Positions 3,494 through 46,310 are shown, counted from the first letter of the stretch. The stretch is DNA of 64,000 bases from Patescibacteria group bacterium (GCA_041671645.1 JBAZBD010000001.1:412890-476889); one strand, 5' to 3'. Numbers and translations are program-made. Notes: a model not told the origin generated them from the sequence alone.

Positions 3494-5686
3494 CTAGAGG
3501 CTACCTTCGTATATTTTGTTGTCTCCTAGTCCCCATATCTTTTGGAGTTTGGTGTTCACGACGAAATCTTGCAATTTCACGCCGTCAAAAACATATTGAT
3601 TCTGGAAGTTTCCAGCTTTGTCGAATCTGAGGATTTTGCCTGCATTTGAATCAAAGACGAAGAGGTTACTCGTCTCATCATCAGTGTATATCTTGGTCGC
3701 TAATATCTTGTCCTGATCTATCAGGCTTGGAATATCTCTCAGGGCGAAATCTTGTTCTAGGCTTCCACGGACAAACTTTGCGACGCGGTTCCCTTTCTCC
3801 AGGACGAAGATGTTGCCGTCAACTGCCATATCTTTGGCTTCAATTAGCGATATTTTTCTGGTATCGGCGTACTTCGAGCCCTTGGCAAAACCGTCGTCCT
3901 TCTTGGTGTGTTTCCAGACTTGGCCAGTCTCGGAATCGAGGAGGTAGATATTTGTAGCATACGTTGTGATCGCAGCCGACCTTTCCCACGCGCCCAGGTC
4001 ATCAGTGACTTTGAACTCTGAGATGGTATTGCTGTCTAATGTCATGGACAAGACTTTTTGTTGGTCAGTCAAGACCAGAATAGTATTTTCTTGTTTTGAA
4101 AATGTCAGATTGATCGGTTGCCCCATGCCGCTAATAGTTGCCACAGGTTTTGATGATTTGTCTCTGGCGTCGGAGAGGGAAATTATTCCCTCGTTGCTGA
4201 TGCCATAGATTTGCGATCCGACCAGAGCGATTTTTGTAATATTTTTTTCTGCAGCAAAGGGGCTCGTATAGTAACGGACTGTATTGGTCTTGTCATCGAT
4301 AAACTCGTTGATATTTTTGACCAGGATGAGAGCTTTTTCACCGTTGACGCTTGAAGATCGGGCGTTTTCGGCGGTACTCAAAATCTCGAAGATTTTCTTG
4401 TAATCGACTGATTTGTGGAGGGCTAAATCGTTCTTGAAATTTTCAAAATCTGTTTTGGCCTGGTCATATGAACCGTCAAGTCGAACCTGGGAAATCTTGG
4501 CTTCGCGCTTCTCATTGTTCTCTGAGATCTTGAAATATCCAGTCGAAAGGGCGACCAGTATCAGGAAAATATACAGGTATTTCCTATTGTTCTTCTCAAG
4601 GACGATCCCGACTTTGTCGATGTGGCCAAAGCAATTTTGGCAGAAAAAAGCGATTTGTCCAAAGAAAGATTTGCTGGGGCCATGCTTGGCGTAGGCGACA
4701 GCCTTGATTTTGATCTTCTTGTAATTCTCTGACTCTTCGAGAGACTTGAAATTTTTGCTAATTCCAGCTTTTGCCTTCATGACTTGGTCGACGGCCTTGG
4801 GCAAATTTTTCCGAACGTATTGTAATATCTTGGGCCAGACCTGCTTGCGGCATTGATGCAAAAGTTGCTTCAGGAATTTGAGCGAACTCTTCCCGGCTAC
4901 CAGGGCGCCGACCCGACTTTTTTCTCTGGCTTCTGAAAATTTCGATTTAATATTTTTCACAACTGGATCGTCGTCATCAGTAAAGACGCACTGCAAGTTT
5001 TCATCGAGATAGGCAAAACCCTCATCCTTGTTGTCTGCAAAAATGACGATGGCGCCGACCGATTTGACTCGTGATTTTCTCAGTATTCCAGAGATTCCCA
5101 TCACTTCTTTGGCGGGATCGTGGAGCTTGATGACCTCTTTGAGATTGCTAAGGGGGAGGTGACCATAGGTATCTTTGGTTGCGAAGATAAGGCGGTCGTC
5201 GCTCGAGAGATCTCCAGAAACGATGTCGGAAAATATTTTGCCTGGATGAGTTGGCGCCTCACTATCCTCTTGGTTGATCAGGGAGGAGATACGATTATTT
5301 CTGAAAATATAGCCGACTATTTTGCCAGTTTGTGAGAGTAATATGTCTCGCCCCGAGACTATCCCAATTAGCATATTGAGGGAGAAAATCGATTTTAGAT
5401 CCGTTTGCTCTGCTTCTTTGCAGATGGCGTTGTTCAAGGCTGATAAAATATCATCGAAATCTTTGGGCTGAAAACTTTCTTTGTCGGAGACCTCATCCAT
5501 GATGACCTGGTTCAGCTTCTCCAAGAAAGCCTCATCTTCTGGCTGGGAGAAAGGTAGGTCGATTAAATAAAAAAGAAAATTACCGCCATCAAAATCAGAG
5601 CCGATCTTTTCACAGATAAGCCCCCTATTCTCCGATCTATTCCTGCTGGTGATAAGGGCAGATTGAACTACCGGAAGTTTGTCCAT
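3494..5686 (-). CDS. Large membrane protein with an N-terminal PP2C-like (possibly degenerate) phosphatase-like domain, one TM helix and a C-terminal beta-propeller-like repeat domain
   Basis: 730 aa. The N-terminus has PP2C-like blocks (SDFDGGNF, LLSQTGKIVGYIF, DDRLIFATKDTYGHL, GAIVIFADN) but the canonical GDSR is not conserved. TM segment YLYIFLILVALSTGYF. The C-terminus has repeated hydrophobic beta-strand blocks (NIYLLDSETGQVWKH, NIFVLEKGNRVAKF, NLFVFDSNAGKILRFD). Confidence 0.4.
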   Translation of the reverse strand: MDKLPVVQSALITSRNRSENRGLICEKIGSDFDGGNFLFYLIDLPFSQPEDEAFLEKLNQVIMDEVSDKESFQPKDFDDILSALNNAICKEAEQTDLKSIFSLNMLIGIVSGRDILLSQTGKIVGYIFRNNRISSLINQEDSEAPTHPGKIFSDIVSGDLSSDDRLIFATKDTYGHLPLSNLKEVIKLHDPAKEVMGISGILRKSRVKSVGAIVIFADNKDEGFAYLDENLQCVFTDDDDPVVKNIKSKFSEAREKSRVGALVAGKSSLKFLKQLLHQCRKQVWPKILQYVRKNLPKAVDQVMKAKAGISKNFKSLEESENYKKIKIKAVAYAKHGPSKSFFGQIAFFCQNCFGHIDKVGIVLEKNNRKYLYIFLILVALSTGYFKISENNEKREAKISQVRLDGSYDQAKTDFENFKNDLALHKSVDYKKIFEILSTAENARSSSVNGEKALILVKNINEFIDDKTNTVRYYTSPFAAEKNITKIALVGSQIYGISNEGIISLSDARDKSSKPVATISGMGQPINLTFSKQENTILVLTDQQKVLSMTLDSNTISEFKVTDDLGAWERSAAITTYATNIYLLDSETGQVWKHTKKDDGFAKGSKYADTRKISLIEAKDMAVDGNIFVLEKGNRVAKFVRGSLEQDFALRDIPSLIDQDKILATKIYTDDETSNLFVFDSNAGKILRFDKAGNFQNQYVFDGVKLQDFVVNTKLQKIWGLGDNKIYEGSL

Positions 5687-5884
5687 TTATTCTTTTATTT
5701 TACCTTTTTCGGTGGATATCTTCAACCAAAGGGGTATTTAAAAATAATATTATTTAATGATAAAATCTAAGTGAGGTTTTGCTTAGGCGATAAATTGGCC
5801 ATCAATTAGATCGCATAGGGTTTCCAATATTTGTTCTGACCGTGGTCAGAACGTGAGGTAACCCACTTGGTTATAAAGACCAAT

Positions 5885-7084
5885 TTAAACCGAAGCAGAG
5901 CCTCTTTTTTGTTTGGATTCAATCAGCTCACGGTAAATATCAAGTAACTCATGGAAGGTCTTGGTGATCTCATGCTGTGAAGCGATTTGCATCGAGTGTC
6001 GGCCCATTACTTCAGCTTGTCTCTTGTGTCTGATGATTTCGACAAGTCCCTTGGCCAAATCTTTTGAATCGTCAGTTTTGAACAAGAAACCGTTGACTTC
6101 GTCCTTGACTAGCTCTGGGAGGGCATTGGCTTTGACGGCTACTATAGGAAGTCCTGCGGACATAGCTTCAAGGGTGACCAGACTTTGAGTTTCAATAGTT
6201 GAAGCAATAGCGAAAACCGTCGCTGACTTGTAGAGAGCGACAAAATCGTCGGAATCATGGTCGAGGCGCCCCAGCATAGTTAAGTCCTTCCTGACACTTA
6301 GATCCTCAGCCAATTTCTCCATTTCAGAGATAAGATCCCCCGTACCGGCGAAGACGAAATGAGCGGTGGTATCCTTGACGACATCAGGAATTGCCCTGAC
6401 AATAACATCGATACTTTTGTCCTGATCAATTCTGCCTGTGTAGAGTACGATTGGATTATTGGGCAAATGATATTTGATCTTGAAGTCATTAATTTTTTTC
6501 TGCGGAAATTTCCTGGCGAAACGATCGTAAAATATTCCGTTTGAAATCGCCACCACTGGAGTCTTGACTCCCCAAGAGCGGATTTGTTTGGCGATAGTCT
6601 CGGTCGGCGTGAGGACTAGATCGCAACGGTTGTGAAAAGATACTAAATACCTTGTCAGCAGAAATTTGGAAAAAGGCTTCAATATCTTGAGTTTGACATA
6701 TGCGATAGCAAATTCGAGACTAAAATGATTGGTGATGACGACAGGAATGTTCTTTTCATTTCCGACGTCTCGAAGCATTATGCCAATGGTGGCGACGTCT
6801 TGGAGATGGATCAAATCTGGCTGGATCGATTCAATTTGACGCCTAATTTCATTCTTCGAAGCAGAAGTGATGCGAAAGCCTTTGCGGAAAGGATTCACAA
6901 TCGATTTCAAGCGGATCACTTTGTATGGGAAGCTCTTGTCAACAGAGGTTTCGCCGGTGCGACTGGGGCAGAGGACTATTGGCTCATGGCCAGATTTCAG
7001 TAAATTATTAGCTAGAATTTCGGTCGCAACAGCAACACCAGAAATATTGGGAGAGAACGATTCGGTTCCTAATATTATTTTCAT
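5885..7084 (-). CDS. Glycosyltransferase family 4 (GT-B, retaining)
   Basis: 399 aa; GT4 E-x7-E region (ETQSLVTLEAMSAGLPIVA...NGFLF); typical N-terminal GT-B fold. Confidence 0.8.
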   Translation of the reverse strand: MKIILGTESFSPNISGVAVATEILANNLLKSGHEPIVLCPSRTGETSVDKSFPYKVIRLKSIVNPFRKGFRITSASKNEIRRQIESIQPDLIHLQDVATIGIMLRDVGNEKNIPVVITNHFSLEFAIAYVKLKILKPFSKFLLTRYLVSFHNRCDLVLTPTETIAKQIRSWGVKTPVVAISNGIFYDRFARKFPQKKINDFKIKYHLPNNPIVLYTGRIDQDKSIDVIVRAIPDVVKDTTAHFVFAGTGDLISEMEKLAEDLSVRKDLTMLGRLDHDSDDFVALYKSATVFAIASTIETQSLVTLEAMSAGLPIVAVKANALPELVKDEVNGFLFKTDDSKDLAKGLVEIIRHKRQAEVMGRHSMQIASQHEITKTFHELLDIYRELIESKQKRGSASV

Positions 7085-7154
7085 ACTAATATTTTAGCTG
7101 TAAACAGAAATATTATCAAACAAAAATATACTCATCCATGACGAGTATATTTTT

Positions 7155-7229
7155 GGTCAGGGAGGCGGGACTTGAACCCGCGGCCTCCGGACCCCCAGCC
7201 CGGCGCGCTACCAACTGCGCTACACCCTG
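7155..7229 (-). tRNA. tRNA-Pro (anticodon GGG)
   Basis: Cloverleaf read on the minus strand: acceptor CAGGGTG/CTCCCTG (one mismatch), D arm GCGC-AGTTGGTA-GCGC, anticodon stem CCGGG/TCCGG with loop CTGGGGG, T arm GCGGG-TTCAAGT-CCCGC, encoded CCA. Confidence 0.75.
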
Positions 7230-7270
7230 AACAATTTAAAACAATACCAGATTTGAGACATGATTTCTAG

Positions 7271-7306
7271 GCAAAATAAAAAGCGGCCGATGTGTAGCGG
7301 CCGCTT
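7271..7306 (-). terminator. Intrinsic terminator downstream of the 7320-7745 ORF
   Basis: On the minus strand: AAGCGGCCG-ctacacat-CGGCCGCTT followed by TTTTATTTT. Confidence 0.5.
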
Positions 7307-7319
7307 GGATTGGTCGGGC

Positions 7320-7745
7320 TCAAAGGGATGTGCTGCCCTTTTTCCCGAAATTGTCATTGGAGTGGGATCTCCTTTGACCGACATAGATTGTCTTCGAATA
7401 GACCGAGAGCTTAAAGCAGATGCTTGCTGATCCGTTGTTGGCAATCGTCGGCGCTATATGCTGTTTGCATATCCCGAAGACGTATCTTGCAATGTGCGTT
7501 TCTGACCATGCCTCTGATGGCCACCTCTTGGTCCAGGAGTCTGTGGGCCAAAGAAATTGGATAGATGTGCGTACCTTGTTGGCACGCTTGCGGATTACTA
7601 CTCTGAATTCGAGATGAATGTAAGCTGGCTTACCATACTCGAAAGGAAAGCTTGACCCGCTTTGGTTTAGAATTGCCAGGATGTCCTGGACGGGGGCGGG
7701 GATCGTCATTGAATTGTCCTCCAAATTTTCATTCTCATATAACAA
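7320..7745 (-). CDS. Hypothetical protein (GC-richer islet next to tRNA-Pro)
   Basis: 141-aa ORF with a terminator; no recognisable motif; the true start may be an internal Met (MTIPAPV...). Confidence 0.3.
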   Translation of the reverse strand: MLYENENLEDNSMTIPAPVQDILAILNQSGSSFPFEYGKPAYIHLEFRVVIRKRANKVRTSIQFLWPTDSWTKRWPSEAWSETHIARYVFGICKQHIAPTIANNGSASICFKLSVYSKTIYVGQRRSHSNDNFGKKGSTSL

Positions 7746-7915
7746 AAAATCACCTGCTCGTATCCGGCTGGTGATTATTCGCTATATTCTCTAGTAGTCC
7801 AAAATCACTTGCCGGAATGGGTAAGTAGTAGGACTAGTAGGTTTTGTGCGAATGTGATCATTGAGATGAATTTACGCTTTTCCGATAAAAAAGTCAAGAA
7901 ATAAAAAATGGCCGA

Positions 7916-8266
7916 CTATTCTTGGTCGGCCATGGGTTCTGGGGTCAAGAGTATTTCCGTATAAGTAAGACCGAAGTCTTGCTGCGGGATCATTTCCCAG
8001 GCGTTGTTCTTTTCTTCCAATCTGAAGCCCAGAATTGCGCCATAGGCACCGCATGTCGGCCAAAATTGGCCGATCGCCAGATAGTTCTCTGACGAGCCCA
8101 CAATATGGAAATCTCTGGAGCAGCCGCCCTGGGTGAAGACGCCCTCACCAAAGACGCGGTTTTCGATCAGTCGTATTTTACCCTTGTATTCGAAGGTTGG
8201 CGGGCTCTGGAAGGGAAGTAACGGTTTTCCCAGAGCTGAGATATGAAAGGAAAATTCGGTGGTCAT
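7916..8266 (-). CDS. Hypothetical protein
   Basis: 116-aa ORF; no recognisable motif. Confidence 0.3.
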   Translation of the reverse strand: MTTEFSFHISALGKPLLPFQSPPTFEYKGKIRLIENRVFGEGVFTQGGCSRDFHIVGSSENYLAIGQFWPTCGAYGAILGFRLEEKNNAWEMIPQQDFGLTYTEILLTPEPMADQE

Positions 8267-8390
8267 GCTTCCACCTCCTCAAAAATTCTGCTCTGTGCAG
8301 TAATCAATGGAATCTTTATAACACAAAATCGGTTGTTTTGCCAGTCAACCTTACTTTTAATATTTGAAGTTTTGATCTATCCTATGAGTT

Positions 8391-9803
8391 ATGACTATAG
8401 AAAACATCAAAGATATTGTTGACGACGAGCTTTTTAATAAACTTCTGCTTGGGACTATAGATCCAACCCAAGAAATTATTTTGAAGATTTTGAAGAAAGC
8501 TTCGAAGAAAAAGGGCTTAAGTTTGGAAGACGTTGCCGCTCTTTGCAATTGTACTGACCCGGTCTTGATCGCGAAAATCTTTGAGTTCGCCTACAAGATC
8601 AAACAGGACATCTATGGCGAGCGGATAGTCCTATTTGCTCCACTATATATATCTGATTTTTGCGTCAATGACTGCGAATATTGCAATTTCCATTGCCGGA
8701 ACAACTCGCCGAGGCGAAAATTATCTCTAGAAGAAGTGGCGTCACAGACAAAGGCCCTGGTCGATATGGGACACAAACGGCTGCTCCTCGAGTTTGGCGA
8801 ACATCCCGTCGAAAATCCAATTGACTATGTTGTTGACACCATAAATACAATTTACAAAACGAAATCGAAGAACGGCGAGATTCGGAGAGTGAATGTAAAT
8901 ATTGCCGCCACGACAGTAGAAAATTATCGCAAACTGAAGGAAGCGGGGATTGGCACCTACCAACTTTTCCAAGAAACATATCATCGGCCCACTTTCGAAA
9001 AATTACATCATGGGCCAAAAGCCAAATATGAGAGACAGCTTTTCGCTCACAACAAAGCTTTTGAGGCGGGGATAGATGACTTGGGAATTGGCGTGTTATA
9101 CGGTCTTTATGATTGGCGATACGAAGTTCTAGCTCTCGTCTCTCATGCAGCTTACATGGACAAAACTTTTGGCGTCGGCCCGCATACTATTTCAGTACCG
9201 CGTTTTCAGGAAACGCCAGGAGTAGACTTTAAGCCGCCATATCCTGTTTCGGAGGATGAATTACTGAAAATCGTCGCAATACTACGATTAGCCGTGCCAT
9301 ATACCGGGATGATTATTTCGACTCGAGAACGGCCAGAAATTCGAGAGCAGGCGTTTAAACTTGGTATTTCTCAGACTAGTGCAGGCTCCCGAGTAGAAGT
9401 GGGTGGATATGACGAAAATTCTAAACCAGTGACTAAAAGCCCAAAAGATGATGGTTGCGGCCAATTCACCACTCATGACCCGAGAACCTTGGATCAGATT
9501 GTGATAAGCCTTTGCGACCAGGGGCTTTTACCATCTTTCTGCACTGCCTGCTACCGAAGTCTTCGGACGGGAGAGAGTTTCATGGAAATCGCCAAGCCAG
9601 GCAACATCCACAATTTTTGTCGGCCAAATGGAATTTTGACCTTCAAGGAATATCTCCTGGATTATGCTTCACCTCTGGCCAAGCAAAAAGGCGAGAAATT
9701 GATTCGTGAATATTTGGACAAGATTCCGTCAAAAAAACGCAGAGAAGAAACGATGGAGCGTCTGGCTAGACTTGAAAAAGGCGAGCGGGATCTGTACTTT
9801 TAA
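8391..9803 (+). CDS. hydG: Radical SAM tyrosine-lyase family protein, HydG-like ([FeFe]-hydrogenase maturase-like)
   Basis: 470 aa. N-terminal CVNDCEYC (CX3CX2C radical SAM cluster) and C-terminal CTAC-x22-C (the CX2CX22C auxiliary cluster motif characteristic of HydG, absent from ThiH). No hydE, hydF or hydA is present in the window. Confidence 0.6.
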   Translation: MTIENIKDIVDDELFNKLLLGTIDPTQEIILKILKKASKKKGLSLEDVAALCNCTDPVLIAKIFEFAYKIKQDIYGERIVLFAPLYISDFCVNDCEYCNFHCRNNSPRRKLSLEEVASQTKALVDMGHKRLLLEFGEHPVENPIDYVVDTINTIYKTKSKNGEIRRVNVNIAATTVENYRKLKEAGIGTYQLFQETYHRPTFEKLHHGPKAKYERQLFAHNKAFEAGIDDLGIGVLYGLYDWRYEVLALVSHAAYMDKTFGVGPHTISVPRFQETPGVDFKPPYPVSEDELLKIVAILRLAVPYTGMIISTRERPEIREQAFKLGISQTSAGSRVEVGGYDENSKPVTKSPKDDGCGQFTTHDPRTLDQIVISLCDQGLLPSFCTACYRSLRTGESFMEIAKPGNIHNFCRPNGILTFKEYLLDYASPLAKQKGEKLIREYLDKIPSKKRREETMERLARLEKGERDLYF

Positions 9804-9808
9804 TATAT

Positions 9809-9884
9809 CGGAGCGTGGCCCAATTGGTAGGGCACGCGATTCGGGTTCGCGAGACTCCGGGTTCGAGTCCCGGCGCTCCGACCA
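9809..9884 (+). tRNA. tRNA-Pro (anticodon CGG)
   Basis: Acceptor CGGAGCG/CGCTCCG, D arm GCCC-AATTGGTA-GGGC, anticodon stem CGCGA/TCGCG with loop TTCGGGT, T arm CCGGG-TTCGAGT-CCCGG, encoded CCA. Confidence 0.7.
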
Positions 9885-10853: not shown

Positions 10854-11939
10854 ATGTTTAAACTTTTTCTGCCAGATTTGAAAATGTTATTTCGGAACAA
10901 GCAAGCCTCGTTCTGGGCCTTGATGTTTCCCCTCATGTTCACCTTCATCTTTGGGTTTTTCTTTGGCAAAGATTCTACTACTGGCAATATTATAGTGATT
11001 AATAATTCAAAGACGGAAATTGCTACCAATCTGGAGCAAACGCTGACCGATACAAAGTTGTTTGTCATAAACAAAGATTATACTGACATCGACAAGGCTC
11101 GCGAGCAGGTCGAAAAGGGAAAAATTGCTGCCGTTTTGGTAATCCCTGAAAATTTTGGAGCGCCAACGTCTTCTGCGCCAAAAACATTGCAGGTCATCGA
11201 TGATCCGGCCAATACAACGACCAACACCGTGCTACTTGGCTTTCTCGATAAATTTAATGTCGGCCTCACTTTCAAGATCAACAAGATCGAAGAGACTGCT
11301 TTCACCGTTATCGAGGAGAAGACAAACAAGAAGAGTTTGGGATATTTCGACTTTGTTTTGGCTGGTTTGCTTGGCCTATCTCTGATGAACGCCTCGATAA
11401 TGGGAATCGCCGTCGGTATGTCAAAGTATCGAGAAGACAAGATATTCAAAAGATTGACTACGACCCCGATGAAACCTTGGTGGTTTATCGTCAATGAAGT
11501 TCTTTCCCATTTGGTTCTCAATTTCCTGCAAATCACAATCATCCTATTTGTTGGGAAATTTGTCTTCGACGCTCATATTTATGGAAGTTTCTGGGTGATT
11601 TACCCGCTGGCACTTCTCGGAGGTGTATTGTTCCAGCTTATTGGTTTCGCTATCGCTTCTATCGTCAAAACGACCGATGCCGCTCAGGGCGCGGCCATGG
11701 CGATCACCATCCCGATGATGTTCTTGGGCGGTGTTTTCTTCCCAATCGATGGTCTGCCCAAATGGCTTTTCTCGATTGTGCAGTTTTTGCCGATTGCGCC
11801 ATTACTCCGAATGCTTCGGACAGTTGTACTCGAAGGTGGCTCAGTACTGACCAATCCAGCTAATATGATTATCGTACTATCGTGGATCGTAGTCTGTCTC
11901 TTCTTCGCTAGCTGGAAATTTCGTCTTAACGAAGAATAA
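10854..11939 (+). CDS. ABC-2 family transporter permease
   Basis: 361 aa; N-terminal TM, large periplasmic loop, then five TM helices (ABC2_membrane-like); translationally coupled to the ATPase. Confidence 0.7.
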   Translation: MFKLFLPDLKMLFRNKQASFWALMFPLMFTFIFGFFFGKDSTTGNIIVINNSKTEIATNLEQTLTDTKLFVINKDYTDIDKAREQVEKGKIAAVLVIPENFGAPTSSAPKTLQVIDDPANTTTNTVLLGFLDKFNVGLTFKINKIEETAFTVIEEKTNKKSLGYFDFVLAGLLGLSLMNASIMGIAVGMSKYREDKIFKRLTTTPMKPWWFIVNEVLSHLVLNFLQITIILFVGKFVFDAHIYGSFWVIYPLALLGGVLFQLIGFAIASIVKTTDAAQGAAMAITIPMMFLGGVFFPIDGLPKWLFSIVQFLPIAPLLRMLRTVVLEGGSVLTNPANMIIVLSWIVVCLFFASWKFRLNEE

Positions 11940-11975
11940 GATTGAAAGAGTCAAACATTTTGGATTCTCTTTTTT

Positions 11976-13457
11976 TTGAGATATAATATTGCTATGTGGA
12001 TGCGCAACAAATGGTCCGAAATCATACTCAAGCTTTCTCTGATTCCAAAAAATAAACTCTATGTACTGGTTGGTTCTGTGCTGGTCATTATAATTTTACT
12101 AGTTACAGTCGGAGTCAAAACTGTTGGGGCGATCAGAGAGAAGAATCGTTTGCGAGCGGTAGAGCAGGAACAGTCAAGCAACGACTCTATTTTCGAAGTA
12201 GAGAAAAATTCTGGAACAGAGGTCGTCCCAACCACAAATACTCCAGACGCATCTACCCAAACCACTGCTGGTGTAAATTCTGGGACTAGCTCAACCCCTT
12301 CTACGTCTAGCGGCGGCGCAACAAACAGCTCAGATTCTACGTCTAGCGGTGGCACGACAACTGTTTCGGATTCTACCTCTAGCGGCGATACTACCAATAG
12401 TAGCAGCTCTAGCAGTAGCGGAAGCTCTAGCAGCGGTACGGCGACTCTGTCTTCCTGTGGAAGTAGCTATTCCTTCTTTGATCACGATCCGACGGACATG
12501 TCAGAATTTGCCAATATCGCGCCGCTCGGCAATCTTAATCCCTCAGGTCACGTTTTCCCGACCGATCATATTTATTTTTATCATTCTAGCAATAACACTT
12601 CCACGGTCTATGCCCCAGGGAGCGCAACTGTGACTCGGATCTCGGCGAGCGAAAACCAAACTGCTGGCACGACCGATTATAGTATTTACTTCAACCCATG
12701 TAGCGAACTAGAAGTTTATTATCTGCATATTTCCACCATGTCGCAAAAATTGCTTGACGCTTTTGTTGCTCCTTTTTCCTGGGATAGTACTTATTCGACT
12801 GGCGGTAGCACTTACCGAAATTACGGTCGAAATGTCAATGTTGTTCTGGCGAGCGGGGAGACCGTCGGCACTTTCACTGGCCAATATGCCTTTGATATGG
12901 GTGCGTATGACACCAGGATCACCTTAAATTTTGTCAATCCAAATGCTCGTCTGAACAGCACCCACACTGTATGCCCGCTCGATTATTATTCTGACAGTTT
13001 GAAGGCGACGCTTTATGGCTATCTCGGGAGTAGCGCTAGCAACAAACGCACCGTTGCCCCACTTTGCGGTACTGTTGATCAAGATGTCGCAGGTACGGCT
13101 CAAGGCGTCTGGCTGCTTGCAGGAACGACGCAGGTCAATGGCGAAGACACTCATCTAGCACTGGTTCATGGCAATACTGACCCAACACAGGCAACTTTTT
13201 CCGTCGGTACTTCTGTCGGCGCAAGCGGACTCTCGAGCGGGGTCTACACTTTTACCCCCTCTGGTGGGTCATACAATAAAGACTTCAATGCTGTCACAGT
13301 AGATAGCGGACCGCAATGTTATCGGGCAGAAAGAAACGGTGCTCAAACTATTCTGATCCAATTAACTAGTGCCACAACACTTAAGATCGAGAAACTAGAC
13401 GGTGATTGCGATACTCCACGTAGTTTTACTGGCAACGAAACATCATTCCAAAGGTAA
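11976..13457 (+). CDS. Membrane-anchored extracellular protein with a Ser/Thr-rich tandem-repeat linker
   Basis: 493 aa; N-terminal TM; ~80-aa S/T/G low-complexity stretch encoded by ~36-39 nt tandem repeats (12290-12440); C-terminal globular domain without recognisable motifs. Confidence 0.45.
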   Translation: MRYNIAMWMRNKWSEIILKLSLIPKNKLYVLVGSVLVIIILLVTVGVKTVGAIREKNRLRAVEQEQSSNDSIFEVEKNSGTEVVPTTNTPDASTQTTAGVNSGTSSTPSTSSGGATNSSDSTSSGGTTTVSDSTSSGDTTNSSSSSSSGSSSSGTATLSSCGSSYSFFDHDPTDMSEFANIAPLGNLNPSGHVFPTDHIYFYHSSNNTSTVYAPGSATVTRISASENQTAGTTDYSIYFNPCSELEVYYLHISTMSQKLLDAFVAPFSWDSTYSTGGSTYRNYGRNVNVVLASGETVGTFTGQYAFDMGAYDTRITLNFVNPNARLNSTHTVCPLDYYSDSLKATLYGYLGSSASNKRTVAPLCGTVDQDVAGTAQGVWLLAGTTQVNGEDTHLALVHGNTDPTQATFSVGTSVGASGLSSGVYTFTPSGGSYNKDFNAVTVDSGPQCYRAERNGAQTILIQLTSATTLKIEKLDGDCDTPRSFTGNETSFQR

Positions 13458-21300: not shown

Positions 21301-22464
21301 TTGATCGGCATCGGAAGGGGATCCTCGCGCAACTATTTATTATTCAAGAAAGACTTTGCAATGGCGTGGACTGAAATAAAATATAGCAAAAATTTAGTAA
21401 ATCGAGCAGGAGATACTCTCATTAGCCAAGGATCTTCAACAGATGAGATTAACGAGGCGCTAATGGTTCTTGACAACTGGCGCTCTGCCCATAGCTTTCC
21501 CTTGCATATTTTTAAAAAGAGATTAAAGGTTGTTTCTAGCGCGGTTGATGACACCTCTTTAGTCGTTCAAAGGCTTAAGCGCAGCCCAGCCATCCTCAGA
21601 AAATTGCAGAGAAGATATGGAGAGCTATCTCCGACAATGAAACTATCCCAAATGCAGGATATCGGAGGATGCAGGGCCGTACTAGCGAATGTAAAACTGG
21701 TTAATAAGATTTGTAGCGAATACTATCATACTGATAAAGCAAATCGTGGCGAGCATTGTGATTTAAAGCACCAATTCAAAAATAAAAAGGATTATATCAA
21801 CAATCCTAAGGATGACGGCTACAGGGGTGTTCATCTGATTTATAAATATATAAGTGATAAGTCCAATAAATATAATGGGTTGCTTATTGAAATTCAGGTT
21901 AGGTCTAAGCTCCAGCATCTCTGGGCAACTGCAGTAGAGACAGTCGGCCATTTTACAAAGCAGGCGCTAAAGTCAAATGAGGGAGAAGAGGACTGGATTA
22001 CCTTCTTTAAACTTGTAAGTTCAGTGTTCGCTCAGAAGGAGAAAACACCCCCTGTTCCAGATACACCCATTGATGGCTCTGAATTGTTTCGACAGGTTGA
22101 GAAATTATCGAACAAACTTCAGGTTGTAGAGAAAATAAAAAGCTGGGCTGAATCGTTAAGGCAAATGGAGCAGATTGAGCAGAACGAGCCGCACAAACCA
22201 CATTTTTATCTTCTGGAATTGGATATCGATACCAGGAGATTAGCAATACGGGCGTTTGATAAGAAAGATGAGGAGACGGCAAATCAAATGTATTCTGCGG
22301 CAGAAAAAAGGGCTAGCGAAGCGAAGGCAAACAGAGATATTGTGCTAGTTGAAGCTGATACAACAAAAGAACTCCAAAGGGCCTATCCAAATTATTTTTT
22401 GGATACAAAAGAATTTATTCAAGAACTTGAGAATTATTTAAATAATGCCGAAGGTATTAAATAA
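21301..22464 (+). CDS. RelA/SpoT-domain nucleotide pyrophosphokinase (standalone synthetase domain with ~85-aa N-terminal and ~170-aa C-terminal extensions)
   Basis: Synthetase motifs in order: RLKRSPAILRKLQRR (Syn1), DIGGCRAV (Syn2 Mg-binding Asp), GYRGVHLIY (Syn3), EIQVRSKLQHLWA (Syn4 catalytic Glu). An alternative start is MAWTEIKY at 21361. Confidence 0.7.
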   Translation: MIGIGRGSSRNYLLFKKDFAMAWTEIKYSKNLVNRAGDTLISQGSSTDEINEALMVLDNWRSAHSFPLHIFKKRLKVVSSAVDDTSLVVQRLKRSPAILRKLQRRYGELSPTMKLSQMQDIGGCRAVLANVKLVNKICSEYYHTDKANRGEHCDLKHQFKNKKDYINNPKDDGYRGVHLIYKYISDKSNKYNGLLIEIQVRSKLQHLWATAVETVGHFTKQALKSNEGEEDWITFFKLVSSVFAQKEKTPPVPDTPIDGSELFRQVEKLSNKLQVVEKIKSWAESLRQMEQIEQNEPHKPHFYLLELDIDTRRLAIRAFDKKDEETANQMYSAAEKRASEAKANRDIVLVEADTTKELQRAYPNYFLDTKEFIQELENYLNNAEGIK

Positions 22465-22503
22465 GGATATACAGCTTTTTGGGAATATATAGGGAGGAGT
22501 AAT

Positions 22504-22812
22504 ATGCAACTAAATTATTTGATCGCTGGACTCGTAATTGGCCTATTGGTAGGGTGGTTCTTTCGGAAGCCCAAAGGGAAAGCTCGGGAGAACGTTAGAT
22601 TGTCGGAAGCGGAGAGGGAGAAGGCGGGGAATATTGAGAAAATTAATTCCTACATCTCTAGCCACTCCAGCGTTACCAACGCAGAAATTGCCAAGCTTCT
22701 CGGCGTTTCGGACGCGACTGTGGTCCGTTATATGGACGAACTAGAGGCGAGTGGAGCGGTCAGACAGATCGGCAAGACCGGCATCGATGCTCATTACGAA
22801 AAAGTAAATTAA
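22504..22812 (+). CDS. Membrane-anchored winged-helix DNA-binding protein
   Basis: 102 aa; N-terminal TM (LIAGLVIGLLVGWFF); C-terminal HTH TNAEIAKLLGVSDATVVRYMDELEASGAV. Confidence 0.5.
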   Translation: MQLNYLIAGLVIGLLVGWFFRKPKGKARENVRLSEAEREKAGNIEKINSYISSHSSVTNAEIAKLLGVSDATVVRYMDELEASGAVRQIGKTGIDAHYEKVN

Positions 22813-22835
22813 CATCTCTAGCACTGCATAAATCG

Positions 22836-22880
22836 AACACCTCACATATGTGAGGTGTTTGTGTCTCTTCTGATTTTTTC
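22836..22880 (+). terminator. Perfect 24-bp palindrome AACACCTCACATATGTGAGGTGTT plus T-rich tail
   Basis: Hairpin followed by TGTGTCTCTTCTGATTTTTT; the same palindrome recurs at 46285. Confidence 0.55.
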
Positions 22881-22936
22881 CAATCCTCTACGTTCTTCTC
22901 CAATCTTTTCATATTAAACTTCCGTTCTATGATCTA

Positions 22937-23047
22937 GGTAGCGGATTAGACGCTATAGCGCACAAACCGCCACCGTAACAATATTCAGTTGTAAAGTTAT
23001 TTTAAGCTTACAAAATAAAATTCCCGCCTCGGAAATCGGGGCGGGAG
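22937..23047. repeat. Copy 1 of a ~110-bp repeat unit: nested-palindrome element + 50-nt tail + hairpin
   Basis: GGTAGCGGATTAGA-CGCTATAGCG-CACAAACCGCCACC (outer inverted repeat enclosing the 10-bp perfect palindrome CGCTATAGCG), tail, then CCCGCC-N11-GGCGGG. It is 107/109 identical to 24335-24443. Confidence 0.7.
23011..23047 (-). terminator. Intrinsic terminator of the 23064-23609 gene (inside repeat copy 1)
   Basis: Minus strand: CTCCCGCC-ccgatttccga-GGCGGGAATTTTATTTTG. Confidence 0.5.
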
Positions 23048-23063
23048 TGAACTAATTTTGCCG

Positions 23064-23609
23064 CTATTCGGCTTCAGGCGGGGCTTCAAGGAGGGCAAAA
23101 ACTTGAGCAATGGCGTCGGCGTATTTGTCGTCTTTGTATTCGGCGCGTCTACGTACCTGGTAATATGTATCCGTTGATAGCCAGCCTGCTATGGAGGCAG
23201 CGAATGCGGATGCCGTAGTTTCGTTTAGGCCGGACAGTACTTCGAGCATCTCGTCGAGATTATCATCCATGACGCGACCGGCGATAATCGCTGAACAGTC
23301 TATGTTTACCAATGGGTAAATTAAACTGCCGATCTGTATAGTACTTGTAGCACTGTAAACAATGCTTGGGATGACCAGGGCTATCCCAGAAAGCAGTATT
23401 TTGCCATTTGGCAGATCATTTGCGAAAAGGTTAAAGTCCCGTAATAACGCGGGAATGAACGCGTTATTCTCATCGTTCGCAAGGGTGTCGATCCACTTCT
23501 TCGCCTCTTCAAGTGTTTGGCATGCGGGGCCTGAAATTAATAATTCCAGATCATCGATTCTCTTCATCTCACGATCCTTTTTGCTTGGCACCAGTATGGT
23601 AAGCACCAA
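23064..23609 (-). CDS. Hypothetical protein
   Basis: 181-aa ORF followed by a terminator; no motif recognised. Confidence 0.4.
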   Translation of the reverse strand: MVLTILVPSKKDREMKRIDDLELLISGPACQTLEEAKKWIDTLANDENNAFIPALLRDFNLFANDLPNGKILLSGIALVIPSIVYSATSTIQIGSLIYPLVNIDCSAIIAGRVMDDNLDEMLEVLSGLNETTASAFAASIAGWLSTDTYYQVRRRAEYKDDKYADAIAQVFALLEAPPEAE

Positions 23610-23705
23610 TGCAGAACTTATACCACAAATGGGCTGGATTAGATAGAGTGATAGTTCTCTTGCTACTTCTTCAATTAAGAAAACTGAACTCTCATTCGCA
23701 TCGCA

Positions 23706-23742
23706 GGTGGCGGATTAGACGCTATAGCGCACAAACCGCCAC
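23706..23742. promoter_or_regulatory. Copy 2 of the nested-palindrome element (core only), 18 nt upstream of the PaaX-like gene
   Basis: GGTGGCGGATTAGACGCTATAGCGCACAAACCGCCAC lies in the divergent intergenic region between the 23609 (-) and 23761 (+) starts. Confidence 0.5.
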
Positions 23743-23760
23743 TTATAGTAAAATAATCAT

Positions 23761-24288
23761 ATGAAGTTATCCAAGAATGTCAAAGCAATTTTGAGTACTA
23801 TTGGCTTGGGGCTGGCGCTTACAGTCGCGTCCACCTCGCCATATTTTTTGGTCAATTTAGTCAAATCAAAGAACAAATACGAGAAATATCGCTACAAGAA
23901 AATCATCAAAAAATTGTTTGACGACAAGATCATTTATCTTTCGGGGGAGGAAATAAAGTTGTCCGAAAATGGTCTCGAACTGCTGAGGCTTGCGCAGGTC
24001 GAGGATATCACTATCGCCAAGGGCAAAGGCGAATGGGATGGTTTTTGGCACCTGGTCTGCTATGACGTGCCGGAATCATACAAGCAGAGGAGGGATTGTT
24101 TCCGCCGAAAACTTATTGAATCAGGATTTTACCAAGTTCAGTACAGTCTGTGGGTAATTCCGTGGCCATGCAAAGAGGAGATTGCGATTATTGCGCAAAG
24201 TCTCGACATTGCGCCCTTTGTTGCCTATCTCAATACCGATTATCTGCCCCAACAACAAAAGCTCCTGAACCATTTCGATCTCGCATAA
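23761..24288 (+). CDS. PaaX-like domain protein (putative transcriptional regulator) with an N-terminal hydrophobic anchor
   Basis: WDGFWHLVCYDVPESYKQRRDCFRRKLIESGFYQVQYSLWVIPWP matches the PaaX middle-domain signature (W-x-G-x-WHLV-x-Y..P...R...R..L...GF......W). It has a preceding wHTH-like region (LSENGLELLRLAQ) and an N-terminal TM/signal. Confidence 0.5.
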   Translation: MKLSKNVKAILSTIGLGLALTVASTSPYFLVNLVKSKNKYEKYRYKKIIKKLFDDKIIYLSGEEIKLSENGLELLRLAQVEDITIAKGKGEWDGFWHLVCYDVPESYKQRRDCFRRKLIESGFYQVQYSLWVIPWPCKEEIAIIAQSLDIAPFVAYLNTDYLPQQQKLLNHFDLA

Positions 24289-24334
24289 CCAACAAAGATC
24301 TCTTTGAAAAATCAGGTTGAATCATTTTCGGTGG

Positions 24335-24443
24335 TGGCGGATTAGACGCTATAGCGTACAAACCGCCACCGTAACAATATTCAGTTGTAAAGTTATTTTA
24401 AGCTTACAAAATAAAATTCCCGCCTCGGAAATCGGGGCGGGAG
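24335..24443. repeat. Copy 3 of the ~110-bp repeat unit (nested palindrome + tail + hairpin)
   Basis: Near-identical to copy 1 (two substitutions); the direct repeats flank a 1.4 kb segment. Confidence 0.7.
24407..24443 (-). terminator. Intrinsic terminator of the 24447-24752 gene (inside repeat copy 3)
   Basis: Same hairpin + U-run as at 23011-23047. Confidence 0.5.
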
Positions 24444-24446
24444 GGA

Positions 24447-24752
24447 TTAGCTTTCGGCTATTAGGACGAGCGCTTGCTCGAGCGCTTGCTTGTGCGTGTC
24501 TTCGATTGCCTTAATGGCAGTTTCAAGGCTGGGAAAATAATTTTCATTCCCATTCTTGACGGGGAGTTGCATATCTGTGAATGCTTCGTATCGATACGAT
24601 TTGCCTGCTATGTCCGCAGGGGTGGGAATCGATTCGTACTCGCGCCGGTGCACATTACCTACGAAGTGCCCCTGACACAATTCATCCTTGTGGTGGTATA
24701 CGCGCCACCAAGTTTCACTACCAGGAAATCCTGGGCTGTTGCTATATCTCAT
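24447..24752 (-). CDS. Hypothetical protein
   Basis: Start chosen at MRYSNSPGFP, which has a strong upstream AAAGGGGGT RBS-like sequence; 101 aa. Confidence 0.4.
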   Translation of the reverse strand: MRYSNSPGFPGSETWWRVYHHKDELCQGHFVGNVHRREYESIPTPADIAGKSYRYEAFTDMQLPVKNGNENYFPSLETAIKAIEDTHKQALEQALVLIAES

Positions 24753-25049
24753 AAATACCCCCTTTGAATATTTTGATCTGAGCAATGATATCATAGCTAT
24801 AACACGTACAGCCCAAAGTAGCAAGGGTGAAGGTTGCATCATTATGATTTTTTGGTGATTGGCTGATGAACAATAATATTGCGGATATTGTCTTCGTCTT
24901 CTTAATCAGCTATTATTCACTCGATTGGTAATATATTCCTGTCCTGCCCTTGGGGTACAACAAAAGGAATCCGATCTCAAATCAAGGGCCCCAACTATCC
25001 ACTGCAGGTCGAAATGGGTAGTCTATCAACCTAATATCTTTGGAGACTT

Positions 25050-25250
25050 ATGGACAACAAAGAATTCAACAAAGCCCTAGATGAGGCTACGAAGAAGAAG
25101 ATGCTTGAGGATCCAGAAATCTGGTGGAAGCCACGAAGATCGCATTGGGATGAATGGGGTTCGCCTGTCGGGCTGACGCTCGCCTGGGCGCCAGGACTCG
25201 TATGCGTCGGAGTATTCCTCTGGTTTCTCCATCTCGCTGAGCTGATCTAA
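25050..25250 (+). CDS. Small protein with a C-terminal TM helix
   Basis: 66 aa; followed by a terminator. Confidence 0.35.
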   Translation: MDNKEFNKALDEATKKKMLEDPEIWWKPRRSHWDEWGSPVGLTLAWAPGLVCVGVFLWFLHLAELI

Positions 25251-25260
25251 TAATAAAATT

Positions 25261-25292
25261 CCCTCCGTCTAATCGGGGGGATTTTATTTTGG
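25261..25292 (+). terminator. Intrinsic terminator
   Basis: CCCTCCG-tctaat-CGGGGGG followed by ATTTTATTTTGGG. Confidence 0.5.
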
Positions 25293-25369
25293 GTAGAATT
25301 GCAGGCAGTTTTCCTATCACTCTTTTCGGAGTAAGATTAGAATATGAAAAAAGTATTGAGAAAGAGATT

Positions 25370-25834
25370 ATGAGGATCTTATTTGTGTGCACTGATAATA
25401 TTGGGCGGAGCGTGACGGCTGAGTATTGCCTCAAAGATTATCTGGCCAAACATAATATTGATGGCGTTGATGTGGCTTCTGCCGGGACTCATGCGGATAG
25501 CGACATGACCGGATTTTCGATGGCGCATTTTCCGAAACTTATGAAGCTAGGTATTGATGCTTCTGGGCATAAGAGGCGACAACTGAGTCAAGAATTAGTG
25601 GATTGCGCCGACAAAATTGTGGTTTTTGACAATTCACACCAAGGGTGGATTAGGCAAAAATTCGGCCTGAATGTGCCTCTCTATAACGAGATATATATAA
25701 ATGAATCAACTGAGATCAGGGTATCGGGACCAGAGTTGAAGGGCACCTCTGACGATCGGATGATCCAGCTCGTAGACTATATTTATAGTTCAACCCCAAC
25801 TTTTTGGGAAAATTTGAAATTGCTCTCTAAATAA
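25370..25834 (+). CDS. Low-molecular-weight phosphotyrosine phosphatase / ArsC (LMW-PTP family arsenate reductase)-like
   Basis: P-loop ILFVCTDNIGRS (C-x5-R-S); start set at MRILFV; ~154 aa. Confidence 0.7.
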   Translation: MRILFVCTDNIGRSVTAEYCLKDYLAKHNIDGVDVASAGTHADSDMTGFSMAHFPKLMKLGIDASGHKRRQLSQELVDCADKIVVFDNSHQGWIRQKFGLNVPLYNEIYINESTEIRVSGPELKGTSDDRMIQLVDYIYSSTPTFWENLKLLSK

Positions 25835-25855
25835 AATTCCCGTCTCGCTTCATAA

Positions 25856-25892
25856 GTGGCGGATTAGACGCTATAGCGGGATAACCGCCACT
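25856..25892. repeat. Copy 4 of the nested-palindrome element (with a degenerate tail up to ~26010)
   Basis: AGTGGCGGATTAGACGCTATAGCGGGATAACCGCCACT; the downstream AAAAATCCCGCTCCGAAATCGAGGAG resembles the repeat-unit hairpin. Confidence 0.5.
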
Positions 25893-26095
25893 TTTAGGCA
25901 TATTAATCTTTGAGCTGAAAGCCGGGAAGTTATCCAACTTATTTAAGCCATCTAAGTTATTCAAGTTAATGAAACAAAAATCCCGCTCCGAAATCGAGGA
26001 GTAAAGTACTAGTTTTGACCTCATATTTTGGTCGAGCGCCGATGCGGCGACCATTTGAAAGCTATTATTGATGCCACGGATAGGGGAATCTTGGC

Positions 26096-27385
26096 CTAGA
26101 ATTGACCAATGATGTTTTTGTAGCCAGCTTCGGGGTCTGAGCCGTCAACTGTTTTGGCCGTCGGGGCAGTGAAGCCTCTTGGCGTCATCATGTTCTCTTG
26201 ATTCGTAAATTCGTATCTTGTATAGAATATTTTAGCCGCTCCGAGTTCTATCGCTTTTCTGGTACTGGCCAATATTTGTGTCGCATTTATGTCTGGATCG
26301 GAAGAAATTAGTGCCTCTGCTTCAGTCACCCAAATCGGTTTATTGATGTTGAATTCTGCGAGCAATCTTTTGTATGGCTCGACATTGAAACTGTCGATCG
26401 AATCGCTGGTGATGCAGTGAACATTGGCATAATCAAAAGCGGCGATAGTGTCGGCATTTGCAAATACACTACGGTAGAAACCGATAAAATTATTATTTCC
26501 ACCGGCTGCTCCAGCGATCACCACTTTGGCTTCCGAATCGGCGGCCTTGATCGCCTCGGATGTGTTTATCAGCAGAGTACCATAAGCCTCAGGTGTGTCT
26601 TTCCAAAATTTCAGACGATCGATGCCGTCGGGCGAAGATAAATCAGGTTCGTTCATCACCTCCCAGTGCTTGATTGGCATAGTCAGACCGGCCATATCCT
26701 TGATGCCGTCTCCGTCATAACGCTCAACCATAGCGGTGATCCATTTCTTGTAAGCGATCCAGTCTGTCGGCGCGCATCTCTGAAGCGGCAGATACCCGCG
26801 TCCATAGGTTTCCTCGTCGAGACCAGGCTTGCTGCCCTTTTTGGAATCCTCGCCTCCGGGCGCAAATTCATCATTTGAGGACACAGCGCAACTACTAGCC
26901 TTTGGATTATTCATCTGATCCCAATCAGCAAAGGGCCATATGGTGGCAAGTATTGCAACATTGTCTTTTTGGTATCGTGCGACTTCTTTGTCGGAGATAG
27001 AATAATAGTATTCAGCGTCGGCGCTGGATTGGCTTCTCTCCCAGACGAAGGCTCCGGGGTGCGGCCTGACCCAACCCCCACCAACCCCAGTGATGAATTC
27101 GCCGTCTCCGGGTCCGGCCGACAAAAATCCAAATTTGTTATTCAAAATTGACTCAGGGATAGTTACTTTGGCCACAACACTATTTTCATCGGCTGGAGTG
27201 GATGTGCTCACGCCCTTATCATCCGTCGGCTCCTCTCCTTTTCGAATCACAAAGAAGGCAACACCCGCTAATATCAAAAAGGCTGCTGCTATTACGATCC
27301 AAAGTTTTTTCTTGCTAGACTTCTTCGGTGGTTCGATGCCCTGTTCGCTAGTCGCTGTGCTCTGACTGCTATCTTGAGTTTCCAT
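26096..27385 (-). CDS. Membrane-anchored glycoside hydrolase, clan GH-A (GH5-like)
   Basis: N-terminal TM; HWEVMNEP (acid/base NEP motif) and WVTEAE (nucleophile region); 429 aa. Confidence 0.55.
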   Translation of the reverse strand: METQDSSQSTATSEQGIEPPKKSSKKKLWIVIAAAFLILAGVAFFVIRKGEEPTDDKGVSTSTPADENSVVAKVTIPESILNNKFGFLSAGPGDGEFITGVGGGWVRPHPGAFVWERSQSSADAEYYYSISDKEVARYQKDNVAILATIWPFADWDQMNNPKASSCAVSSNDEFAPGGEDSKKGSKPGLDEETYGRGYLPLQRCAPTDWIAYKKWITAMVERYDGDGIKDMAGLTMPIKHWEVMNEPDLSSPDGIDRLKFWKDTPEAYGTLLINTSEAIKAADSEAKVVIAGAAGGNNNFIGFYRSVFANADTIAAFDYANVHCITSDSIDSFNVEPYKRLLAEFNINKPIWVTEAEALISSDPDINATQILASTRKAIELGAAKIFYTRYEFTNQENMMTPRGFTAPTAKTVDGSDPEAGYKNIIGQF

Positions 27386-46284: not shown

Positions 46285-46310
46285 AAACACCTCACATATG
46301 TGAGGTGTTT
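46285..46310. terminator. Perfect 26-bp palindrome AAACACCTCACATATGTGAGGTGTTT (bidirectional terminator-like)
   Basis: Same palindrome as at 22836; lies between two minus-strand genes; flanked by T-rich sequence. Confidence 0.5.

Follow-up and report, generated by a model that had tools for sequence, protein, structure and literature searches.

What do repeated palindromes do around a single small gene for a regulator-like protein in Patescibacteria? The question is raised by a 64,000-nucleotide stretch of DNA from a Patescibacteria group bacterium (GCA_041671645.1, JBAZBD010000001.1:412890-476889), which is referred to as the window and in which the + strand carries four copies of a ~37–40 bp nested palindrome, starting at 22937, 23706, 24333 and 25856 (sites 1–4, Table 1) at start-to-start distances of 769, 627 and 1522 nt. 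Sites 2 and 3 bracket a gene for a 175-aa protein, here named mini-PaaX. To our knowledge, almost nothing is known experimentally of transcription control in Patescibacteria (candidate phyla radiation, CPR). We propose that the four elements are probably double-stranded DNA operators of mini-PaaX, through which the protein would autoregulate its gene and control or insulate the immediate neighbours, a concrete, widespread and testable protein/DNA-site pairing in this group.

The four-copy claim of the original prediction was borne out by independent searches of the window. A 37-mer pattern search matched at 22937 (one mismatch), 23706 and 24333 (no mismatch), and 0 of 100 shuffled sequences had any match, while the 20-mer GCGGATTAGACGCTATAGCG additionally matched at 25859, that is within site 4 (25856–25892), whose right spacer has diverged. 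The covariance model R1, based on an alignment of 59 related sites, was run over the 64 kb with filters off and returned the same four sites only, at 37–45 bits, and the next-best match, an ordinary terminator, scored 16.9 bits (E = 0.22). Site 4 was found to be most similar to the downstream site of one related locus (L004) and the upstream site of another (L025). An exact 20-mer scan of genome contigs gave no match; the single 20-mer match among metagenome contigs (L001) was rejected as chance, being placed inside an archaeal dehydrogenase-like open reading frame (ORF) where it codes for GAIGGLDAIA.

The bracketed gene encodes a protein with predicted PaaX-like features. With an E-value of 6.8e-22, residues 90–165 matched Pfam PF20803 (PaaX_M, ‘PaaX central Cas2-like domain’); the Cas2 match was weak. 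An AlphaFold2 (AF2) model with a predicted local distance difference test score (pLDDT) of 81.7 placed helices at residues 5–15, 29–33 and 39–54 followed by a β-hairpin wing at 58–67, and folded the C-terminal half as a β-α-β-β-α-β domain. By full-length Foldseek search against the PDB, E. coli PaaX (8a39) was the best match (E = 8e-4) and Rv0674 the second, whereas Cas2 chains ranked after Rv0674 and covered the C-terminal half only; several Lrp/AsnC regulators were among the weaker fold matches, and a profile match to the winged helix-turn-helix (wHTH) of Sso10a was weak. No match to the PaaX_C effector domain was obtained, the protein stopping at residue 175, and the TIGR02277 score of 30.9 fell far below the cutoff of 264. 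By its predicted fold and its PaaX_M domain, mini-PaaX belongs to the PaaX superfamily, in agreement with the earlier assignment of a PaaX-like regulator between the direct repeats. Lacking both the effector domain and linkage to paa genes, it does not qualify as a PaaX orthologue; no paa gene was found near the module in the window or among the called genes of L002, L004, L019, L021, L022, L024, L025 and L027. An identical Patescibacteria protein (P0001) is named Cas2 at NCBI, and this finding corrects the automatic annotation of such genes as ‘CRISPR-associated Cas2’. The family is large, with 2,321 clusters at 50% identity (E ≤ 1e-10), nearly all of 170–200 aa.

The pairing of gene and palindromes was then found throughout the homologous loci compared, 23 distinct loci (the window, L002, L004, L006, L008–L019, L021, L022 and L024–L028) that come only from metagenome-assembled genomes (MAGs) of uncultured Patescibacteria and share 45–82% protein identity. 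At least one palindrome of the same design lies upstream of the gene in 23/23 loci and at least one downstream wherever the downstream flank is available, with the wHTH protein encoded between the sites in every locus. The upstream centres lie 37–177 nt before the start codon, with a mode of 37–38, and the downstream centres 14–109 nt past the stop codon (63 nt for site 3 of the window). Over 246 kb of homolog loci, R1 detected sites only within ~4.5 kb of the gene. The flanking intergenic DNA is unalignable even among the closest relatives, while the site and the −10 box are conserved. Site number varies: four are present in each of L009 and L022, seven in L016 as a tandem array of 96-nt period directly downstream of the gene (629–1251) with G-rich intervals that are 68–72% alike, and seven in L018, where every intergenic gap of a 4.3-kb island (5547–9844) holds at least one. 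An eighth L016 site was observed at 3585–3624, 2.4 kb beyond the array. The L018 island carries an Xre-HTH/Panacea antitoxin and unknown genes; with one mini-PaaX gene in that locus, its sites form two subtypes, one with GGWACA arms and a TATA centre, the other with ATGACA arms and a GATC centre, and a cognate mini-PaaX gene of the former subtype was not found in the locus.

Three MAGs contain paralog pairs on different contigs (L011/L013, L015/L016 and L014/L017), and within a pair the bracketing sites of the two paralogs differ in arm, spacer or centre, which is the pattern expected of cognate protein–site pairs avoiding cross-talk. No recognition-helix residues obviously tracking the TATA versus GATC centre class were seen among the homologs. 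In the literature searched, no description was found of PaaX-like or Cas2-like Patescibacteria proteins together with such repeats.

All sites follow one design, a ~38–40 bp palindrome with two 6-bp arms (distances d14–19 from the centre on each side) set 26 bp apart. The arm consensus read inwards is T-R-T-N-N-C (RTNNC pattern), and the half-site read outward from the centre is A1 T2 C3 G4 ... T10 ... A12 ... C14 N15 N16 T17 R18 T19, with AT-rich spacers often holding an ATTAG-type motif. The central octamer GCTATAGC, for which the literature searched gave nothing relevant, is present in most loci; the variants GCGATCGC, GCGACCGC, GCGATAGC or GCTATCGC occur in L010, L015, L018, L014, L006 and L028. 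In the alignment of the 59 sites, G17, C18, A20, G23 and C24 are invariant, and T at d17, C at d14 and T at d10 are kept in 54, 44 and 50 sites, respectively. Specific bases are thus conserved family-wide, beyond symmetry alone. The two halves also match each other far beyond the shuffled level: left–right complementarity was counted in 317 of 413 arm cells versus a mean of 186 in across-genome shuffles, none of 2000 shuffles reaching 317, and the covariation score was 0.49 versus 0.19.

The upstream site holds a constant position relative to the promoter. In the window, 18 nt separate site 2 from the ATG at 23761, confirming by coordinates the placement originally noted; the centre of the site is 36 nt ahead of this codon, and 6 nt lie between its right edge and the TAAAAT −10 box. 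Across the loci, a −10 hexamer (TATAAT, TAAAAT or TAGAAT) starts 24–26 nt from the palindrome centre in 9–10 loci, and in 11/22 loci 6 nt separate its end from the start codon, a distance that implies a leaderless mRNA; the upstream site, at about −56 to −17, overlies the −35 region, and no −35 consensus is recognisable. We infer that mini-PaaX, which presumably dimerises through its Cas2-like PaaX_M domain, binds the sites. Given the geometry, the bound protein would occlude the −35 region and autoregulate the gene, most likely by repression as PaaX does at its promoter Px. The downstream and extra nearby sites may act together with the one at the promoter by forming loops or oligomers, or may instead serve as protein roadblocks in convergent gaps. 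On the minus strand, a promoter predicted from its consensus match would be followed by site 2 at about +7 to +43 and would drive transcription through it in the direction of the divergent 181-aa ORF, and site 2 may control both directions. The suggestion that the palindrome is the operator of the PaaX-like dimeric regulator is favoured by the bracketed gene, the site geometry and the fixed promoter position, but its extension to a small regulon is not: in the DNA searched, no site was detected beyond a few kb of the gene, and three of those in the window are in convergent gaps, not at promoters.

Comparison with known systems places these features next to PaaX of E. coli and Pseudomonas in particular. 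In E. coli, PaaX has the operator TGATTC(N27)GAATCA and is an autorepressor, excluding RNA polymerase from its promoter Px (PMC9493321). Mini-PaaX shares with it the order of a winged helix followed by a Cas2-like PaaX_M domain, as reflected by the best structural match, an operator of two 6-bp inverted arms ~26–27 bp apart with a total of ~38–39 bp, and a site overlapping the regulator's own promoter. It differs in its length (175 versus 316 aa), in having no C-terminal phenylacetyl-CoA-binding domain, in the arm sequence and the near-invariant octamer, which is not reported for PaaX, and in the bracketing of its gene on both sides and the arrays of up to seven sites, likewise unreported for PaaX. 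Restriction-modification (R-M) controller (C) proteins, and other autoregulators with paired palindromic operators, are likewise ligand-less HTH proteins of small size whose palindromic operators directly precede the genes encoding them, are often located in defence or accessory regions, and coexist as systems with orthogonal specificities; however, theirs is an Xre-type HTH rather than a wHTH with a Cas2-like domain, and C-boxes are two adjacent sites found upstream only, whereas mini-PaaX sites bracket the gene. A consistently linked target gene of mini-PaaX was not found in the examined loci. Lrp/AsnC regulators resemble mini-PaaX in combining a wHTH with a ferredoxin-like β-α-β-β-α-β oligomerisation domain and in multiple clustered sites around their own gene, but their RAM domain binds amino acids and builds octamers, their sites are ~15 bp, and there is no sequence relationship. 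Repetitive extragenic palindromes (REPs) with their REP-associated tyrosine transposases (RAYTs) are similar in that palindromic elements of ~35–40 bp bracket the gene of the presumed recognising protein, and differ in that REPs are scattered, with copy numbers from tens to hundreds, and RAYTs are transposases of the HUH type, while mini-PaaX is a wHTH protein with strictly local sites.

Several observations weigh against the operator proposal. The Pfam N-terminal PaaX model gave no match to mini-PaaX, and the wHTH assignment rests on the AF2 model, in which residues 16–28 are of low confidence. Sites 1, 3 and 4 of the window lie in convergent 3′–3′ gaps without a promoter (site 1 between an HTH gene and the 181-aa minus-strand ORF, site 4 past a low-molecular-weight (LMW) phosphatase gene), as do the downstream sites of L009, L019, L021 and L022, and no −10 box follows the downstream sites consistently across the loci; it is for these sites that looping, oligomerisation or a roadblock role is proposed. 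A ligand-less regulator whose only evident target is itself also has no obvious purpose. Furthermore, arm and spacer differences between sites of one genome are compensated: L026 has two perfect palindromes, GG/CC versus AA/TT, L024 has GTGGC/GCCAC upstream versus GTAAC/GTTAC downstream, L018 has GGAACA versus GGTACA, and L025 presents a similar case. The within-genome shuffle gave p ~0.004 for the arms, a signal that subfamily history, the paralog-derived sites of L018 and template switching could give as well. An operator read by one protein does not require compensated changes; they fit a hairpin or cruciform constraint or a quasi-palindrome template-switch correction. The bracket, the convergent-gap sites and the defence neighbourhood described below suggest a function beyond simple autoregulation, and the clear specificity positions, conserved promoter geometry and orthogonal paralog pairs make binding and reporter tests possible without culturing.

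Table 1. Palindromic sites, genes, repeats and promoter-like elements of the mini-PaaX locus in the window (bit scores by R1).
Feature	Coordinates	Strand	Description
Site 1	22937..22973	+	GGTAGCGG-ATTAGA-CGCTATAGCG-CACAA-ACCGCCAC; 40.8 bits
Site 2	23706..23742	+	Promoter-proximal operator candidate; 44.8 bits
Site 3	24333..24370	+	Downstream bracket site; 44.6 bits
Site 4	25856..25892	+	Diverged copy, right spacer GGGATA; 37.3 bits
Mini-PaaX gene, 175 aa	23761..24288	+	Predicted N-terminal winged helix and Cas2-like PaaX_M; no C-terminal effector domain
−10-like hexamer TAAAAT	23749..23754	+	Ends 6 nt before ATG
Promoter-like TTGACA-16-TATGAT (11/12)	23756..23783	-	Consensus match only
114-nt repeat copy A	22937..23050	+	Site 1, 53-nt AT-rich tail and hairpin CCCGCCTCGGAAATCGGGGCGGG (23023-23045)
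114-nt repeat copy B	24333..24446	+	Site 3, tail and hairpin (24419-24441)
ORF of unknown function, 181 aa from TTG start	23064..23609	-	No family match; copy-A hairpin at its end
ORF of unknown function, 131 aa	24447..24842	-	Copy-B hairpin at its end

Sites 1 and 3 are embedded in a longer direct repeat, which had been described as ~110 bp with 107/109 identical positions and was measured here as 114 nt with 97.4% identity between copies A and B. The T run after the hairpin of the 114-nt unit is present on the minus strand only, and therefore the hairpin is the terminator of the minus-strand ORFs stopping at 23064 and 24447, which are unrelated to each other, just as originally proposed. The copy-B repeat is not present in the relatives L004, L025 and L026, and the gene of the 131-aa ORF is missing at the corresponding position in L004 and L026, where the site leads directly into the conserved leader of a 66-aa gene. 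The 131-aa ORF probably starts at ATG 24752, after a GGGGG Shine–Dalgarno sequence, giving ~101 aa; for the 181-aa ORF, which is divergent from the mini-PaaX gene, an alternative ATG at 23567 would give ~167 aa. Searches with PADLOC and NCBIfam returned no matches for the 181-aa, 131-aa and 66-aa ORFs. The 114-nt duplication reflects the recent copying, in this lineage only, of one site and its adjacent terminator, and is no functional unit itself. Site 4 had been credited with a degenerate tail; its tail is not homologous to that of sites 1 and 3, and the resemblance is limited to the terminator type.

What else the palindromes might be has to be weighed against these data. Pairing could matter more than duplex sequence if they were DNA cruciforms or single-stranded hairpins, or RNA hairpins at transcript ends, recognised by a Cas2-fold protein, for example in mRNA stabilisation or processing or in structure-specific DNA binding. 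The Cas2/VapD fold is indeed a nucleic-acid-binding and nuclease fold, sites do lie at gene 3′ ends, perfect 36–40 bp palindromes occur among the sites of L008, L015, L019 and L026, the isolated element folds as RNA from either strand at −21 to −23 kcal/mol (z ~−5.6), and the compensated changes within L026, L024, L025 and L018 point the same way. However, quasi-palindrome template switching can yield compensated changes without selection, and the compensation could reflect selection for a hairpin or cruciform or equally template-switch correction, gene conversion or sites of different paralogs. G–T and A–C mismatches were similar in count at every arm position, without strand bias; uncompensated asymmetries are kept in all copies of a genome (a C/T mismatch in all seven sites of L016, the spacers of L013, a 6x5 internal loop in the window); and spacer complementarity within genomes is at the shuffled level (289 versus 286). 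Site orientation relative to neighbouring transcripts is variable, and the upstream site precedes the inferred transcription start, hence lies outside the gene's own mRNA. We consider recognition as an extruded or RNA structure unlikely. The 114-nt unit as a whole had further been suggested to be a duplicated small-RNA gene of ~120 nt, which its two 97% identical copies, a strongly structured 118-nt fold (z = −6.7) and a weak promoter-like match upstream of copy 1 (22906–22933, 9/12) would favour, yet the conserved part is the palindrome alone: tail and hairpin are missing from every related locus, including the relatives of 76–82% identity, the terminating T run is on the opposite strand, and copy 3 has no matching promoter. 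Rfam reported only tRNAs above gathering thresholds in the window and nothing credible at E ≤ 5 in 22400–26200, and the small-RNA suggestion is given up as very improbable.

A recombination function was likewise weighed, in which the palindromes are recombination or insertion sites marking the borders of exchangeable accessory-gene cassettes, as attC or pdif sites do, with mini-PaaX as a site-binding accessory factor and the 114-nt duplication as a footprint. In the window and L018, a small island has sites in almost all of its intergenic gaps, and the copies of any one locus all share one orientation. Relatives differ in the genes beside the downstream site but share those that come next: at site 3 the window carries a tail, a terminator and a 101-aa gene that L004 and L026 do not have, and the place taken by a DNA_alkylation gene in L002 is occupied by a 75-aa ORF in L024, in both loci before PadR-HAAS-DUF4097. 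Neighbours related to defence, toxin–antitoxin systems or transposition are frequent (PDC-S33 in the window; type I R-M, SduA_C, GmrSD, ThsB-TIR and Panacea elsewhere). But no integrase or recombinase stands beside the module among the scanned neighbours in any locus, a site adjoins the window-specific insertion at one end but not at the other, and the downstream neighbour is constant across homologs of 76–82% identity, so the module is not very mobile; moreover, no relative of the mini-PaaX protein was found on viral contigs, and the attC R''/R' cores (RYYYAAC/GTTRRRY) are absent from the site consensus. A miniature inverted-repeat transposable element (MITE) or recombination repeat was among the original suggestions; the real and recent 114-nt duplication agrees with it, whereas dispersed copies, terminal inverted repeats and a transposase, as a MITE would have, are lacking, and the recombination part we regard as improbable. 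Equally doubtful is a self-contained CPR locus-marking system, in which mini-PaaX would recognise extruded sites separating accessory or defence cassettes and would insulate them or promote their gain and loss without an integrase; if true, it would be a new integrase-free cassette platform. Finally, the 37-nt repeat length, the NCBI name Cas2 and the seven L016 sites of 96-nt period are reminiscent of a degenerate CRISPR array and a Cas2-like gene associated with it, and a dispersed, selfish REP/MITE-type repeat might also be imagined. The window spacings of 627–1522 nt contain genes, though, the similarity of the L016 intervals (68–72%) speaks for tandem duplication, neither cas1 nor a RAYT gene is nearby, with no Cas1 domain among the scanned neighbours, no distant copies exist in the 64-kb window or the 246 kb of loci, and the protein fold is closer to PaaX than to Cas2, which makes either origin scarcely credible. 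The operator proposal, by which mini-PaaX would act on duplex sites around its own gene, is the one we retain.

The neighbourhood of the module comprises, in the window, the HTH gene, the unknown ORFs, the LMW phosphatase gene, a glycosidase-like gene and PDC-S33. The glycosidase-like gene had been labelled as glycoside hydrolase family 5 (GH5), a label to be dropped, its product matching Glyco_hydro_cc weakly (E = 0.002). A 387-aa RelA/SpoT-domain protein (21301–22464) was matched by PADLOC to the candidate defence family PDC-S33 (E = 2.8e-119) and is followed by the 102-aa HTH protein (22504–22812), which puts the mini-PaaX module beside a putative defence gene. In three unrelated loci, mini-PaaX is positioned at the edge of a defence island (L019, 11021–18951; L021, 11955–17042; L022, 11250–19585), these islands carrying type I R-M with an SduA_C or ThsB-TIR insert, GmrSD, RhuM, AAA_15 and an EcoRI methylase. 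In L011, a fragmented DDE transposase (DUF772 and DDE_Tnp_1; 11009–11993) is located immediately past the downstream sites.

Two further kinds of element were observed around the locus. An identical 25-nt palindromic terminator, AACACCTCACATATGTGAGGTGTT, occurs at two distant places of the window, 22836–22860 and 46285–46310, and a look-alike terminator family, AAAATTCCCnCC...GGGG, is found at 23009–23045, 24405–24441, 25250–25281 and 25970–26000. The gene of the 66-aa membrane protein (25050–25250) is preceded by a conserved non-coding leader of ~130 nt (window, 24920–25049; L004, 5410–5560; L026, 840–970), whose blocks CTCCTGyCCTrCCCTTGGGG...AAAAGGAGTCC and AAATCAAGGGCCCCAA could form alternative pairings or a pseudoknot. 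With no Rfam match at E ≤ 5 and three compensatory pairs among the three sequences, this leader is a candidate riboswitch or leader RNA.

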